Source of the DNA: a bacterium
Lineage (GTDB): Bacteria > Patescibacteriota > Patescibacteriia > Patescibacteriales > UBA12465
Assembly (NCBI GenBank): GCA_030696105.1
Contig: JAUYNJ010000004.1
Coordinates: 13,872-77,871 of the forward strand
Length of the DNA stretch: 64,000 bases
Direction of reading: 5' to 3'
A model generated the notes under the pieces. The model saw only the letters and a list, made by a program, of their open reading frames with translations. It was not told the DNA's origin and did not search any database. How positions within the stretch are numbered: position 1 is the first letter of the stretch; each line of letters opens with the position of its first letter. A program made the translations under genes and the position numbers. Below, piece after piece: positions 9,382 through 46,169 of this stretch.

Positions 9382-10251
9382 TTACTCCTCAATTTTGTCT
9401 ATGATATTTCCAAGCTCTTCTTCACTGTAAAAATCGAGTATCACCCGGCCGCCACGACCAGAGCGAATAATGCGCGCCTTAGTCCCAAAATGAGTACGCA
9501 ACTTCTCTTCCTTATCCTTATCGGCGTAATTAATCACCACACGGGCTGACTTGGTGCCACCCATACGCTTAGTTTCATCGTGAGTCTGGGCAACGGATAA
9601 GTTCTGATTAATTATTTTTTTAAAAAGCACTGCCTGCTTACCCGGATTCTCAATTCCAAGCAAATATTTGGCATGAGCTTCCGTGATGCGACCAGAACTC
9701 AAAGCTTCTTGGATCTCTAAGGGCAACTCTAGCAAACGCAAAGTATTCGCGAGCGTTGAGCGCGCTTTACCGATGCGCTTGGCGGTTTCCTCTTGGGTGA
9801 GATTAAACTCGTCCATCAGGCGCTTATAGGCTCGCGCCGTTTCGACTGGGTCAAGATCTTGTCTCTGTAAATTCTCAATCAAGGCCAGTTCCAATTTTTT
9901 TTGCTCACTGGCTTCACGCACTAAGGCTGGCACTGTTTTAAGACCCAGTGCAGTTGCGCTGCGCCAGCGACGTTCACCCGCAATTAGTTCATACTTCCCG
10001 TCTTTGCGTGTTAAAACGAGCGGTTGGATAATTCCGTGTTCTTTAATAGAATCCATTAGCTCCCGCAAAGATACTTCACTGAAATTATGGCGCGGCTGAT
10101 AGGGATTCATGCTAATCTCTTTCGGATCAATATAGAAAACCCGATCGGCGTCAGCCATTACCGGCTGTGACGCCGCCTCAGTATTTAATGGTGTGTCGAT
10201 GTTTTTTTTGGGGATAAGGGAGCCGAGGCCCCGGCCTAGTGCTTGCGACAT
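9382..10251 (-). CDS. parB: chromosome partitioning protein ParB
   Basis: 289 aa. ParB box LIAGERRWRSA, HTH (ETAKRIGKARSTLANTLRLL). Follows parA with an 8-nt gap. Confidence 0.92.
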   Translation of the reverse strand: MSQALGRGLGSLIPKKNIDTPLNTEAASQPVMADADRVFYIDPKEISMNPYQPRHNFSEVSLRELMDSIKEHGIIQPLVLTRKDGKYELIAGERRWRSATALGLKTVPALVREASEQKKLELALIENLQRQDLDPVETARAYKRLMDEFNLTQEETAKRIGKARSTLANTLRLLELPLEIQEALSSGRITEAHAKYLLGIENPGKQAVLFKKIINQNLSVAQTHDETKRMGGTKSARVVINYADKDKEEKLRTHFGTKARIIRSGRGGRVILDFYSEEELGNIIDKIEE

Positions 10252-11153: not shown

Positions 11154-11237
11154 GCCCGGATGTCGGAACTGGTAGACGAACACGACTCAAAATCGTGCGG
11201 CCGCGAGGCCATGAGGGTTCGAATCCCTCTCTGGGCA
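11154..11237 (+). tRNA. tRNA-Leu (anticodon CAA)
   Basis: Acceptor GCCCGGA/TCTGGGC. Anticodon arm CACGA-CTCAAAA-TCGTG. Long variable arm (cggccgcgaggccat). T arm GAGGG-TTCGAAT-CCCTC. CCA not encoded. Confidence 0.93.
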
Positions 11238-11243
11238 CATAAT

Positions 11244-18360: not shown

Positions 18361-18381
18361 ATTTAAATTATATGTGTTAAC

Positions 18382-18740
18382 TAGGGCAAGCGATAAGCCG
18401 GATTCTGTCGTGAACGGCCATTTATCTAGCTCGACTGTCACCAGCCAAGTCTTGCGAGCTACTTTTTATCACGTATAGGCCTGACGGCCACGTGACTTTG
18501 CTCTTGCTCCAGGCAGGGTTTACCACGGACACGCCGTTACCGGCGGCCGAAACTTGTAGCCCCGAAGGACACCAAGTCACTTTTCACCTTTCTCCGTCTA
18601 TGAAGACAGATAGTATTGTCTCTGTGGCACTTTCCCTAAGATTACTCTCGGCGGACGTTATCCGCTGCCCTTTTTATGAAGTCCGGACTTTCCTCTTCTT
18701 TGCGACTAATAGCGCAAAAAAGCGGCCGCTTACTTGCCCC
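18382..18740 (-). ncRNA. rnpB: RNase P RNA, bacterial type A
   Basis: Minus strand reads GGGCAAG...GAGGAAAGTCCGGAC (CR-I)...GTGCCACAGAGA...GGTAAACCCTGCCTGGAGCAAG...CTAGATAAATGGCC...ACGACAGAATCCGGCTTATCGCTTGCCC (CR-V). P1 pairs GGGCAAG with CTTGCCC. Confidence 0.95.
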
Positions 18741-18753
18741 GATTAACACTTCC

Positions 18754-44372: not shown

Positions 44373-45179
44373 TTATTTAATGAGCTCGCGCACTTCCTTA
44401 ATCTTCTCCATTGCGCCAGTATATTCTTTATTGTCGAATAATGTTTTCGCTTCATCGAGAATCTCACTCGCCGCCTTTACATCTTTAACAGGTTCAACTT
44501 TTACTTCCTCAGTGCCAGTGGCCGTGACGCTAGTGCTTGCAGTGGCGGTGGCATTAACAGTGCCGTTACTAATTGAGAGCTGCAAACCGGTATCATCTTT
44601 TTCGGTACCGGCAGAGATGACGATGTCATCAGGGTTTACGGTATCAGTATTAATGAGGTTAGGAGTAACATTTTTTTCAATTGAAGCGATGCGAGCACGG
44701 ACGGTGTTAAGTTCACGATCGAAATTCTTATTTAATTCTGCAACTCTTACTTCATTCTGAGCATTATCTTCGGTGCGGGATAAAACTTCAGTAATTGCTT
44801 CGGCGTGATCAGTCGCAAATTTCACTTCAAGCTTTGCCTTCTCTTCGTTGTTAAATACTGTTGAAAGCTTTGCCTTCTCCGAAATGATACGCGCGATATA
44901 TAATGATTCATCCGGCTTCGCTCTGTTGAAGGCGAGATGACCATAGGCGCTAGCGCCAGTCGCGAAGAGTAATAAGGCACCAAGCACCATGGCCGGTTGA
45001 GAGACGGTCATAGTAAAGCTGCGGGCATCAATTAAGATGCGCTTCCAGACGGATAATTCCTTGGCCCCAGAGTTAGAGATTTGGGATAGCAAAATCTCCC
45101 GGTTGCTTTTCAACCAGGCTGAATCAGGAGTTATCTTCTTGAGGTCCTTCAGTTGTGCGATGAAGTTATTCTCAGTCAT
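44373..45179 (-). CDS. hypothetical bitopic protein, DUF5667-like; possible anti-sigma partner
   Basis: Start set at ATG 45179 (MTENNFIAQL; the track start is TTG). One TM (PAMVLGALLLFATGASAYGHLAF), helical extracytoplasmic region. Same strand as, and downstream of, the sigma factor gene. Confidence 0.6.
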   Translation of the reverse strand: MTENNFIAQLKDLKKITPDSAWLKSNREILLSQISNSGAKELSVWKRILIDARSFTMTVSQPAMVLGALLLFATGASAYGHLAFNRAKPDESLYIARIISEKAKLSTVFNNEEKAKLEVKFATDHAEAITEVLSRTEDNAQNEVRVAELNKNFDRELNTVRARIASIEKNVTPNLINTDTVNPDDIVISAGTEKDDTGLQLSISNGTVNATATASTSVTATGTEEVKVEPVKDVKAASEILDEAKTLFDNKEYTGAMEKIKEVRELIK

Positions 45180-45355
45180 ACGCAATAGTATACGGATGGG
45201 GAGTCATTTTGTTACAGTCCCCCGCCCCATTTCTGCCCGTCTTTATTGATGATTTCTCGCTCATTGTGACTTAAGTCTAGGGATATGTGGACTTAAAGGT
45301 GGAGAGTGATAAAGTTGTAATTTATAGTTTTGTTAAATCGATGTTACCACTCATT

Positions 45356-45364
45356 TGCTAGAAT
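45356..45364 (+). promoter_or_regulatory. extended -10 promoter (TGcTAGAAT) for the tRNA-like RNA
   Basis: tgctagaat ends 9 nt before G45374. No good -35, as is often the case for extended -10 promoters. Confidence 0.5.
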
Positions 45365-45373
45365 GATTCCAGT

Positions 45374-45441
45374 GGGCCCGGCGAGGATGCAAGCGTGGTC
45401 TTAACATTCACGTCTTCGGGGTTCGAGTCCCCGCGGGTCCA
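45374..45441 (+). ncRNA. 68-nt tRNA-like RNA with G3:U70 acceptor pair, canonical T arm, no canonical D arm
   Basis: Acceptor GGGCCCG/CGGGTCC (G3:T70 wobble). T arm CGGGG-TTCGAGT-CCCCG. Discriminator A. Only 36 nt lie between acceptor and T stem. Central hairpin CGTGG-TCTTAACAT-TCACG. Confidence 0.55.
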
Positions 45442-45456
45442 CCCAGGTCTGGTTGC

Positions 45457-45484
45457 TTGACTACTAATATTCTCGTGTTATAAT
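45457..45484 (+). promoter_or_regulatory. near-consensus promoter
   Basis: TTGACT (45457..45462), 16 nt, TGtTATAAT (45476..45484). Confidence 0.6.
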
Positions 45485-45490
45485 GTAGTT

Positions 45491-45555
45491 GTTAAGATCA
45501 CGCTTGAGCCCTGAATTGAATATCAAATAAGCACCCGCTCGGGTGCTTATTTTTA
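45491..45555 (+). ncRNA. candidate orphan small RNA (~65 nt)
   Basis: Runs from the near-consensus promoter to the terminator aagcaccc-gctc-gggtgctt + attttta (45529..45555). No plausible ORF. Confidence 0.35.
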
Positions 45556-45578
45556 TATCCAAATATCAATTTGTTTAC

Positions 45579-46169
45579 CTATTTTTTACCCTTCTCGAGT
45601 TCGTCTTCAACCATCTCTTTTAAAGCGGCGATGGCGCGGTGCAAGATAACGCGGATATTGCCCCTCGACTTACCAGTGACAGCGGCAATCTCTTCGAGGC
45701 TTAAATCATTCACAAAGCGCAGGACGATGACTTCACGATACTCTTCTTTGAGCAAAGGTAACTGCTTACGTATGAGCTCCATGTCGCTTGCCTGATCCAT
45801 ATTCGCCGCCAGGTCCTGTTTGTCATCAACCACGTCAATTGGGTTGTTCTCATCATCAAGGGACACCTCAAGCTTATTACCGCTCTCACGATAATAGTCA
45901 ATAATGGAGGTGCGGGCAACTTTATACACTAAGGCGCGTAAGGTGCGGCTATCGCTTAGGCTATTTGCCTGAATATAATTCCAAGCTTTAAGGAAAATCA
46001 TCGAGGTTAAATCACGAGCTTCTTCCTCGCGCCCTACCTTAAAATAGACGAAACGATAAACGTCCTCCACGTAGTCGTCGTAGACTTTAATAAATGCCTC
46101 CTTATCTCCACTCTTTAGCTGTTGCAACAATTGCTTCTCTTTGAATTTTTTTATTAGATTAGGGGCCAT
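45579..46169 (-). CDS. RNA polymerase sigma-70 family (ECF-like) sigma factor
   Basis: Start set at ATG 46169 (MAPNLIKKF). Region 2 (DVYRFVYFKVGREEEARDLTSMIFLKAW) and region 4 HTH (LSLEEIAAVTGKSRGNIRVILHRAIAALKE). Confidence 0.88.
   Translation of the reverse strand: MAPNLIKKFKEKQLLQQLKSGDKEAFIKVYDDYVEDVYRFVYFKVGREEEARDLTSMIFLKAWNYIQANSLSDSRTLRALVYKVARTSIIDYYRESGNKLEVSLDDENNPIDVVDDKQDLAANMDQASDMELIRKQLPLLKEEYREVIVLRFVNDLSLEEIAAVTGKSRGNIRVILHRAIAALKEMVEDELEKGKK

Follow-up and report, generated by a model that had tools for sequence, protein, structure and literature searches.

An alanine-tRNA-like RNA and a candidate antisense partner: a putative two-RNA module in Patescibacteria

The DNA analysed here (hereafter the window) is a stretch of 64,000 nucleotides (nt) of contig JAUYNJ010000004.1, from a member of Candidatus Falkowbacteria (Patescibacteria). 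In an intergenic region of the window lies a 68-nt element resembling a reduced alanine tRNA, which we call the mimic. The original prediction, made from the letters alone, described an extended -10 promoter, a 9-nt gap (45365-45373) before GGGCCCG, a 7-bp acceptor stem with G3:T70, a T arm, an A followed by CCC, and an interval of only 36 nt (45381-45416) between the acceptor and T stems; all of these are present in the sequence of 45000-46000. What it missed is a second gene. A predicted small RNA, beginning 48 nt downstream of the mimic, is complementary to the mimic's central hairpin, and because this hairpin is the target of a dedicated antisense RNA, we regard the 68-nt element as one half of a two-RNA module. 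The features of the module and of the rest of the window are listed in Table 1.

Table 1. Coordinates of the module, its neighbours and the other RNA genes of the window
Feature	Position	Strand	Sequence or basis
Extended -10 promoter-like element of mimic gene	45356-45364	plus	TGcTAGAAT (TGCTAGAAT); consensus match, good -35 absent
Alanine-tRNA mimic (tL), 68 nt	45374-45441	plus	Sequence, covariance model, covariation, RNAalifold
Mimic acceptor stem, 5' strand	45374-45380	plus	GGGCCCG; 7-bp stem
Mimic mini D hairpin	45381-45390	plus	GC/GAGGAU/GC; 2-bp stem
Mimic long (central) stem, 5' strand	45391-45398	plus	
Mimic central loop	45399-45407	plus	U-CUUAACA-U
Mimic long stem, 3' strand	45408-45416	plus	One bulged U
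Mimic T arm	45417-45433	plus	CGGGG (45417-45421), TTCGAGT (45422-45428), CCCCG (45429-45433)
Mimic acceptor stem, 3' strand	45434-45440	plus	CGGGTCC; gives G3:T70 (G45376:T45438)
Mimic discriminator A73	45441	plus	Next bases CCC; CCA not encoded
Small-RNA target site in mimic	45390-45406	plus	Last mini-D base, long-stem 5' strand, most of loop
Small-RNA promoter, sigma-70-type	45457-45484	plus	TTGACT, 16-nt spacer, TG-n-TATAAT; 11/12 matches
Predicted antisense small RNA, ~65 nt	45490-45554	plus	Ends predicted
Small-RNA block 1	45490-45506	plus	Complementary to mimic 45390-45406
Small-RNA block 2	45506-45515	plus	GAGCCCUGAA; complementary to 45415-45424 (UUCGGGGUUC)
Intrinsic terminator (hairpin 45525-45552 and T run)	45525-45554		AAATAAGCACCCG-CT-CGGGTGCTTATTT; palindromic, A/T tracts on both sides
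ECF sigma factor gene	45579-46145	minus	Convergent with small-RNA gene; Pfam
Palindromic site upstream of DUF5667 gene	45268-45296		GACTTAAGTCTAG-GGATAT-GTGGACTTAA
Putative DUF5667 gene promoter	45177-45215	minus	GTAACA-17-TATACT; -10 ends 7 nt before ATG at 45179
DUF5667 membrane protein gene (anti-sigma-like)	44373-45179	minus	Pfam
Secreted or surface protein, 1192 amino acids	40188-43766	minus	Just upstream of sigma/DUF5667 pair
Class A RNase P RNA	18378-18741	minus	Rfam, 224.9 bits
tRNA-Leu(caa)	11154-11238	plus	ARAGORN and Rfam thresholds passed

The mimic keeps two arms of a canonical tRNA, an acceptor stem of 7 bp and a T arm made of a 5-bp stem and a UUCRANY loop, together with the tRNA-Ala identity set of G3:U70 and A73. 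A normal tRNA body is not present: the family alignment has no normal D arm, no 5-bp anticodon stem, as a rule no 7-nt loop with U33 and a purine at position 37 (R37), and no variable loop. In its place are a mini D hairpin, which in the family has a stem of 2-4 bp and a loop of 3-6 nt with a conserved GG, and a long stem of 8-9 bp that often contains one bulge, with no linker nucleotides between the helices. The element had originally been described as lacking a D arm; it does lack a normal one, but the mini D hairpin is there and covaries in the family. The loop of the long stem follows the motif YU(Y)RRCA, with C37 in 38 of 40 copies and C37 and A38 in nearly all, while position 33 is usually U (C in 8 of 40) and the loop-closing pair is usually mismatched. 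In the 40-row alignment the triplets at positions 34-36 are UGA (20), CGA (7), UAA (6), UAG (4), UGU (2) and UAU (1), a tally that sums to 40 but is approximate, the loop of one copy (L122, GCUUCCUAUC) being a misfit to the motif. The YUNR U-turn is a motif of loops targeted by antisense RNAs, as in hok/Sok and CopA/CopT, and the mimic's loop, judged by its sequence, fits a target of this type. Upstream of the mimic gene, family members have a TGnTATAAT equivalent to the window's -10 element, ending about 7-16 nt (mostly 9-13) before G1; these distances come from reading the upstream sequences directly, our automated promoter scorer having picked unreliable hexamers for this promoter.

We found homologs of the mimic in two ways. 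A pattern scan of metagenome contigs returned 120 loci, which fall into two classes. Those of 71-72 nt are ordinary tRNA-Ala genes with the anticodons GGC, CGC or UGC (ARAGORN calls tRNA-Ala in 16 of the 16 sampled), and those of 67-70 nt make up the mimic family. By nhmmer, using the window's intergenic region as a query, we recovered the whole module at three related loci (L001, L009 and L010; labels of this kind denote the related loci and contigs that we compared with the window) and the tRNA-like part at three others (L041, L044 and L046). Both sources combined give about 40 distinct mimic sequences in Patescibacteria, on contigs of 35-50% GC with the exception of two GC-rich outliers (L121 and L122). 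A covariance model, R1, built from six copies including that of the window, scores 54-81 bits on the 34 metagenome copies outside the training set, compared with 76-86 bits on the six training copies. It finds a single copy in the 64-kb window, at 85 bits (E ~1e-17, a match by construction).

The alignment of 40 sequences supports the secondary structure. Paired cells amount to 94.5%, compared with at most 62% when the partners are slid against each other, and double-sided changes are seen in 127 cells, compared with 39 +/- 7 in shuffles. Compensatory changes, which the original prediction had suggested looking for in homologous loci, occur at 11 of the 21 base pairs, comprising all the variable pairs of the mini D hairpin and the long stem. 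RNAalifold returns the same four-helix cloverleaf, and pair 6:67, which the search pattern left free, stays paired throughout (CG 32, UA 5, UG 3, C.A 0). On this comparative evidence, the existence of a real and conserved RNA family with a four-helix cloverleaf is well supported. The folding energy of the window copy alone is no better than that of shuffled sequences (z = 0.14; the folded segment, 45376-45443, was 2 nt out of register) and is thus uninformative, so the claim that the element exceeds chance rests on comparison.

The acceptor stem GGGCCYG/CRGGUCC, A73 and the T arm are common to the mimics and to the tRNA-Ala genes retrieved by the same pattern, a match that is partly by construction because the pattern fixed these arms. 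A generic scan of the 1.3 Mb of DNA that we fetched found no mini-tRNA with any other acceptor stem. Since the two classes share acceptor stem, A73 and T arm, we view the mimic as a derivative or a constrained copy of tRNA-Ala. Among the tRNA-Ala genes themselves, tRNA-Ala(GGC) is flanked by tRNA-Arg(CCU) in L065, L067, L068, L071, L072, L074, L085 and L099, with tRNA-Ser(CGA) also present in about half of these, which looks like a conserved small tRNA cluster.

Standard detection tools miss the mimic. ARAGORN made no call at its position in a scan of the window (it reported tRNA-Leu(caa) only, and no tmRNA), no Rfam family reached its gathering score at the locus, and no low-GC copy of the family is accepted by ARAGORN or the Rfam tRNA model. 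An ordinary tRNA with other boundaries, which the original prediction had named as an outcome that would count against it, was therefore not found at threshold. The Rfam tRNA model RF00005 gives a hit at 45281-45441 that we rejected (26.7 bits, gathering score 29); it borrows 45281-45326 as a 5' half and spans a 90-nt insertion, and we treat it as an artefact because the borrowed half overlaps a palindromic site that is kept in relatives without a mimic. The best Rfam model for the window copy is mascRNA-menRNA, RF01684, with 30.4 bits against a gathering score of 42.5 (27.6-33.8 bits across the family).

Below threshold, the family also aligns with the tRNA-like domain of transfer-messenger RNA (tmRNA). 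Model RF00023, whose gathering score is 47, gives 20.4 bits on the window copy, 36.6 and 36.2 bits on the two copies of L111, and 30.9 bits on L041 and L100. The alignments run end to end, from model position 1 to 374, with the whole 304-308-nt body deleted, and they match the acceptor stem, a D-loop-like UGGAU segment, helix 2a (corresponding to the long stem) and the T arm. This suggests that the mimic could be a mini-tmRNA consisting of the tRNA-like domain only, which together with SmpB and EF-Tu would rescue stalled ribosomes without tagging or would add untemplated alanine, the small RNA tuning its availability. The presence of G3:U70 and A73 agrees with such a role. Constructs consisting only of the tRNA-like domain accept peptide in vitro with SmpB, and some mitochondrial tmRNAs have no coding part. 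We nevertheless consider a mini-tmRNA unlikely, since no RF00023 score reaches the gathering threshold, the D region forms a covarying hairpin and not the open D loop of tmRNA, neither RNA contains a conserved tag frame, and the acceptor stem and T arm match those of tRNA-Ala genes found with the same pattern. Multiple copies with diversified hairpins are not needed for a rescue factor, for which a dedicated antisense RNA would also be hard to rationalise. We found no smpB or ssrA gene nearby: ARAGORN detected no ssrA (tmRNA) in the 1.3 Mb of fetched DNA, and a tblastn search of the same DNA with an unverified Escherichia coli SmpB sequence as query gave no match, which is a weak negative.

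Nor do the data point to a tmRNA in pieces. The permuted tmRNA model RF04321 scores 9.9-15.4 bits (gathering score 47) and aligns with the T arm alone, and both acceptor strands lie within one RNA, which is at odds with a permuted, two-piece tmRNA. We also rejected the idea of a two-piece tmRNA in which the small RNA would be the coding piece: no frame or stop is conserved, and the small RNA leaves the helix at its end closest to the tRNA-like domain, which is the wrong topology. What is favoured is the first of the readings originally put forward, an RNA resembling the tRNA-like domain of tmRNA or another kind of tRNA mimic, given the arms that match tRNA-Ala and the end-to-end RF00023 alignment at 20-37 bits.

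The same prediction had placed a decoding tRNA last among its readings. Such a tRNA would insert alanine at serine or leucine codons, as a form of regulated mistranslation, and this idea draws on the loop triplets, which are mostly anticodons for Ser and Leu, on the usual presence of U33, and on a variant (in L121) with a 7-nt loop, G37 and an encoded CCA that ARAGORN calls tRNA-Ser(cga). Decoding is very unlikely because of C37 in 38 of the 40 copies, the over-long stem and the usually mismatched loop closure: a stem of 8-9 bp with no variable loop makes the arm 2-3 bp too long for the standard L shape. The C33 of 8 copies and the rejection of every low-GC copy by the tRNA detectors also speak against it.

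The L121 variant (9550-9622, 63% GC) has a 9-bp stem and the loop GUCGAGA, and is called tRNA-Ser(cga) despite its G3:U70 and A73. The tRNA genes of L121 encode CCA and so does its mimic. We found no partner small RNA for it in the 122 nt of downstream sequence. It could be a genuinely mistranslating tRNA or an ancestor-like form of the mimic family. L122 (62% GC) is another atypical copy of the mimic.

The gene downstream of the mimic has the best sigma-70-type promoter of the region, and the antisense arm begins 5-6 nt after it. The complementarity between the two genes takes the form of a 17-nt inverted repeat, 94% complementary with a G:U as its one mismatch, between 45390-45406 (CAAGCGTGGTCTTAACA) and 45490-45506 (TGTTAAGATCACGCTTG). 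A second block extends it across the junction and the T stem's 5' strand as far as the first bases of the T loop, a variant that is seen in the window's clade, and is separated from the terminator hairpin by an A/U-rich stretch. The terminator probably serves the convergent sigma-factor gene too, because it is palindromic with A and T tracts on its two sides. The sequence of its hairpin is kept in L001 (three copies), L002, L003, L006, L008, L010 and L011.

An antisense partner accompanies the mimic throughout the family. Allowing bulges, we found a cognate small RNA for all 36 of the distinct mimics whose downstream sequence is 150 nt or longer. Without gaps, the longest complementary stretch in the next 170 nt is 8-20 nt (median 15), compared with 6-12 nt for tRNA-Ala controls, and it starts 34-69 nt downstream except in L082 (138 nt) and L177 (5 nt, where the ungapped method failed). 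Energies of the duplexes between mimic and small RNA range from -24 to -50 kcal/mol, whereas the median for controls is about -22. In L001, L009, L010, L041, L044 and L046 the mimic is followed by a promoter and a small RNA whose 5' end is complementary to the local hairpin, despite the differing sequences–for example, the complementary pair in L001 is TAGGCATGAACTTGAC / GTCAAGTTCATGCCTA. Between the window and L010, four positions have changed on both partners.

We aligned the pairing of 30 modules in a register anchored on C37. At each position from -11 to 0, 90-100% of the modules have a base pair, with 2-6 types of base pair in each column, except that the anchor column is an invariant C:G. 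In the same register, cognate partners pair at 84% compared with 63 +/- 1.3% for non-cognate ones. In the family at large, the target of the second block is the 3' side of the long stem, with a mean run of 5.55 nt in cognate combinations compared with 4.71 nt, a specificity that none of 2000 permutations reached, and in some clades the pairing runs on into the mini D hairpin. Cofolding free-energy differences (ddG) are -7.5 to -18.6 kcal/mol across the modules and -14.7 kcal/mol in the window. The 5' tail of the free small RNA is predicted to be mostly unpaired, with weak hairpins in some copies, including one of 5 bp in the window.

The signals around the two genes are consistent with their separate transcription. 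Over 31 modules the small-RNA promoter has a mean of 10.2 matches out of 12, with TTGAC in 28 of the 31 and the extended TG in 26, and its -10 ends 4-11 nt before the antisense segment. By match to the consensus it is stronger than the mimic promoter, which has an extended -10 but a poor -35. The two genes have no terminator between them, so read-through transcripts carrying both segments are also likely. A more radical possibility is that the locus produces a single structured transcript of about 180 nt, the complementary segments forming a hairpin in cis and the internal promoter being unused; the segment 45374-45560 does fold at -69.1 kcal/mol (z = -4.6), as a transcript running through the terminator-less spacer might. 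We give this little credence, because, in an otherwise unconserved spacer, a near-consensus TTGACn-17-TATAAT is retained at a constant distance from the antisense start, and because small-RNA units with the same promoter exist alone. Read-through probably occurs in addition, which is compatible with two separate transcripts.

The two genes differ in how they are gained and lost. Among close relatives of the window the distribution of the module is patchy. In the closest relative (L001, 4585-5640), which has a sigma factor 95% identical to that of the window, it is inverted relative to its flanks, and the intergenic region contains three further small-RNA genes with different 5' tails and no matching mimic adjoining. 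The small RNA is kept alone in L002, L006 and L008, and in L009 it adjoins a mimic that has lost its T arm. Conversely, no mimic without a cognate small RNA was seen among the copies with enough downstream sequence. Small RNAs without mimics, and never the reverse, is the pattern that a harmful RNA guarded by its antidote would produce. The same intergenic region of L001 also has an extra open reading frame (ORF) of about 93-112 amino acids, without a Pfam match.

The solitary small RNAs could also be read the other way round, with the small RNA as the real effector, acting in trans through a 5' seed, and the tRNA-shaped RNA as its stable decoy or sponge, for which the tRNA frame would be a scaffold. 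Sponges derived from tRNA precursors are known, such as 3'ETS-leuZ, and the small RNA has the stronger of the two promoters, as might be expected of an effector. We find this improbable because the complementarity is 12-30 nt long and follows the mimic's sequence nucleotide by nucleotide, into the mini D hairpin and along the two strands of the stem, and so far exceeds what a seed mimic needs. A scaffold would not require G3:U70, A73 or a tRNA-Ala-type T arm, and the scan for mini-tRNAs with other acceptor stems was empty. Elsewhere in the 64-kb window the seed has no match with fewer than three mismatches, and the mean number of three-mismatch matches is 0.26 per shuffle, about one shuffle in four having one. 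We accordingly gave no weight to a second candidate target of the small RNA, at 44705-44721 on the minus strand within the DUF5667 gene (three mismatches).

The module is RNA-only and autonomous. No ORF is conserved within the modules, and in 10 of them neither strand has an ORF of at least 12 codons that starts with ATG, so we rejected a hidden peptide toxin; nor is a tag frame or a stop codon conserved in the mimics or the small RNAs. All-against-all clustering of flanking ORFs, and Pfam searches with 101 neighbours, revealed no linked protein family such as an integrase, reverse transcriptase, nuclease, SmpB or AlaRS. The neighbours identified by Pfam are housekeeping genes, stable within lineages and different between them: rpsU-yqeY, ybeY with femAB, gatC with ligA, HU, and the ECF sigma/DUF5667 pair. 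Some genomes have several copies of the mimic, with at least four at three places on one 881-kb contig and two each in L111 and L129.

This variety of contexts, together with the conservation, the covarying stems and the mimic's own promoter, refutes the suggestion in the original prediction that the element is a degenerate tRNA or tmRNA remnant at the border of an accessory region, in effect att-site debris at the edge of an integrated element. We see practically no chance of it. Genes for tRNA-Ala do serve as integration sites, and two loci (L136 and L155) show a duplicated tRNA-Ala 3' end, yet the mimic retains both acceptor strands, and its roughly 40 homologs lie in unrelated housekeeping contexts, each with a co-evolving partner RNA. 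The duplications just mentioned comprise the T arm and acceptor strand, about 30 nt downstream of an intact gene (L136 305-370; L155, minus strand), and are a classic footprint of integration into tRNA-Ala.

Two kinds of context bring cell-envelope functions to mind. FemAB-family genes adjoin the module in L082 and L134, and the module of the window lies between the genes for an ECF sigma factor and its DUF5667 membrane partner, an envelope-related pair. The mimic might thus be a dedicated, non-ribosomal donor of alanine for FemAB-type peptidoglycan transferases or similar enzymes, with its supply regulated by the small RNA, and alanine identity elements on a body unsuited to decoding would suit such a donor. 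We rate this as distinctly improbable. The adjacency to FemAB occurs in only 2 of about 36 modules, from one lineage; the T stem of the mimic is unchanged from that of tRNA-Ala, whereas dedicated cell-wall tRNAs weaken EF-Tu binding; and several diversified paralogues, each with a private antisense RNA, would not be needed. In that lineage the FemAB-family genes (L082 223-1323 and L134 920-1927) converge on the terminator of the module, with ybeY on the other side.

Regarding the window's own neighbours, the ECF sigma factor is 95% identical to one from a Candidatus Falkowbacteria genome and has 57 relatives in Patescibacteria genomes, and the 1192-amino-acid protein has no significant Pfam domain. 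The -10 of the putative DUF5667 promoter ends so close to the ATG at 45179 that the mRNA would be leaderless, and the TTG start at 45185 given by the mechanical ORF list is probably wrong. The palindromic site upstream, which is perfect in L008-L010 (TTAAGTCTAG-N6-CTAGACTTAA), is kept in relatives both with and without the mimic (L007 and L008 lack it), and is probably a transcription-factor operator. No RNA of the window other than the RNase P RNA and tRNA-Leu(caa) passes the Rfam or ARAGORN thresholds.

In our preferred explanation, the element belongs to an autonomous module of Patescibacteria that consists of two RNA genes and encodes no protein, and in which an alanine-acceptor mimic is held in check by a dedicated antisense RNA in the manner of a toxin-antitoxin (TA) system. 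For this statement as a whole we put the chances at about even, and our confidence in the architecture by itself is much higher. The first gene would produce the 68-nt mimic, which keeps the parts read by RNase P, RNase Z, the CCA-adding enzyme, AlaRS and EF-Tu, with the tRNA body replaced by the mini D hairpin of 2-4 bp and an 8-9-bp hairpin with a U-turn loop. The second gene, with its stronger promoter, would produce the small RNA of about 65 nt, whose 5' tail would pair with the loop and then down the 5' strand of the stem, its second block pairing with the 3' side of the stem or with the T stem. This pairing would unfold the body of the mimic, leaving the acceptor/T minihelix intact, and would create a duplex of at least 17 bp, a likely substrate for RNase III; for both reasons the small RNA would be a dedicated antagonist of the mimic.

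Any helix that has G3:U70 and ends in CCA is charged by AlaRS, and RNase III acts on long RNA duplexes. By these rules, maturation and alanylation of the mimic are probable, as is its unfolding by the small RNA, which would thereby destroy or block it. Free mimic, once matured and alanylated, would act on the translation machinery, perhaps as a competitor for AlaRS, EF-Tu or SmpB or by unproductive entry into ribosomes. As unrestrained mimic would be expected to be harmful, the pair would behave as an RNA-toxin/RNA-antitoxin module.

Several observations weigh against this explanation. The promoters and terminators are consensus matches only, and the invariance of the acceptor and T arms is partly ascertainment, because the search pattern fixed these arms in the metagenome set. 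CCA is encoded in the mimics of L121, L111a and L129b but usually not elsewhere. Pairing between leader and trailer (positions -6 to -1 with 73 to 78; in the window, 45372-45373 with 45441-45442) lengthens the mimic's acceptor stem by 3.6 bp on average, compared with 0.5 bp in tRNA-Ala genes; U(-1):A73 is invariant (39 of 39 copies), and -2:74 covaries. An extended stem could delay or gate processing by RNase P and RNase Z, and for that reason the mature mimic may lack tRNA-like ends. The modules occupy lineage-conserved positions among core translation genes (rpsU-yqeY, ybeY, gatC), not mobile or defence islands, which would also fit a housekeeping regulator, and the mimic has no matches in viral contigs, on which ground we also rejected a phage origin. 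Finally, the asymmetric loss of the mimic would also fit a small RNA with an independent role, and the seemingly orphaned small RNAs may have targets elsewhere in their genomes.

As a generalisation, there may be a class of RNA-only modules in which an alanine-charged mimic acts on the ribosome or its loading factors and is countered by a co-evolving, bipartite antisense antidote that unfolds its body, with several orthogonal pairs per genome; we offer this tentatively and think it possible but on balance doubtful. The effect of such a mimic might be to poison trans-translation or take its place, to add alanine without a template, or to insert alanine wrongly at Ser or Leu codons. If it is charged and active on translation, it would be a new, RNA-only way to regulate or sabotage protein synthesis, in tiny-genome bacteria that are almost unexplored experimentally. 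The practical consequences concern annotation, since standard tools miss mimic genes and one variant is called tRNA-Ser despite its alanine identity, and synthetic biology, in which these small, modular and seemingly orthogonal pairs could serve as RNA control parts.

Full-text literature searches, including work on Patescibacteria tRNA genes, found no published description of a module of this kind. Its parts resemble known kinds of RNA (tRNA mimics on the one hand, and type I and type VIII antisense pairs on the other), but the combination is apparently undescribed and may be a new class. To our knowledge, stand-alone bacterial genes for tRNA mimics are very few, the main example being tmRNA, which is single-copy and universal. 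With the mimic family, alanine-acceptor mimics would have a second lineage. Its members are short enough to amount to a natural "minihelix plus hairpin", and they are multi-copy, each copy being tied to its own antisense RNA. With the tRNA-like domain of tmRNA (SsrA; RF00023) it shares G3:U70, A73, the T arm, a reduced D region with GG, and a helix that replaces the anticodon arm. Unlike tmRNA, it has no mRNA-like domain, pseudoknots or tag frame, its D region is a covarying hairpin, and it exists in multiple copies with private antisense RNAs.

Compared with antisense systems, the module shares with hok/Sok and other type I TA systems, and with CopA/CopT, an adjoining small RNA, here predicted to be strongly expressed, with a largely unpaired 5' tail, a U-turn loop as target, and a long duplex. 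It also shares with them a patchy distribution of multi-copy loci with leftover antisense genes. It differs from them in that the target is tRNA-shaped and not an mRNA, there is no toxin ORF, and the antisense RNA is encoded in tandem instead of overlapping its target. In type VIII TA systems (CreT/CreA and SdsR/RyeA), as here, the partners are two RNAs from neighbouring non-coding genes, and translation is what the proposed toxin acts on; the mimic, as a putative RNA toxin neutralised by the small RNA, would be comparable. However, CreA uses Cascade and CreT sequesters a rare tRNA by means of a mini-ORF, whereas our module has neither a CRISPR link nor an ORF.

Other tRNA-like RNAs resemble the mimic in part. 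The pseudo-tRNAs of Firmicutes, such as tRNA-Other of Bacillus cereus and the staphylococcal cell-wall tRNA-Gly, are likewise chromosomal, tRNA-derived RNAs outside normal decoding; these pseudo- or non-proteinogenic tRNAs are charged but are not used in normal decoding. They keep a full cloverleaf and have no antisense partner, in contrast to the mimic with its minimal body and alanine identity. Mitochondrial tRNAs whose D arm is shortened or missing similarly have a longer anticodon stem, but they serve in decoding and have a purine at position 37, a proper loop of 7 nt and their own elongation factors, whereas the mimic is bacterial and has C37 and, usually, a mismatched loop closure. The closest likeness in outline is to mascRNA and MEN-beta (RF01684), which also fold, over about 60 nt, into a cloverleaf whose D arm is stunted and whose "anticodon" arm does not decode. 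That family is found in vertebrates, is cut from the 3' ends of long nuclear RNAs, and has neither alanine identity nor an antisense partner, and the resemblance is one of convergence, not homology.

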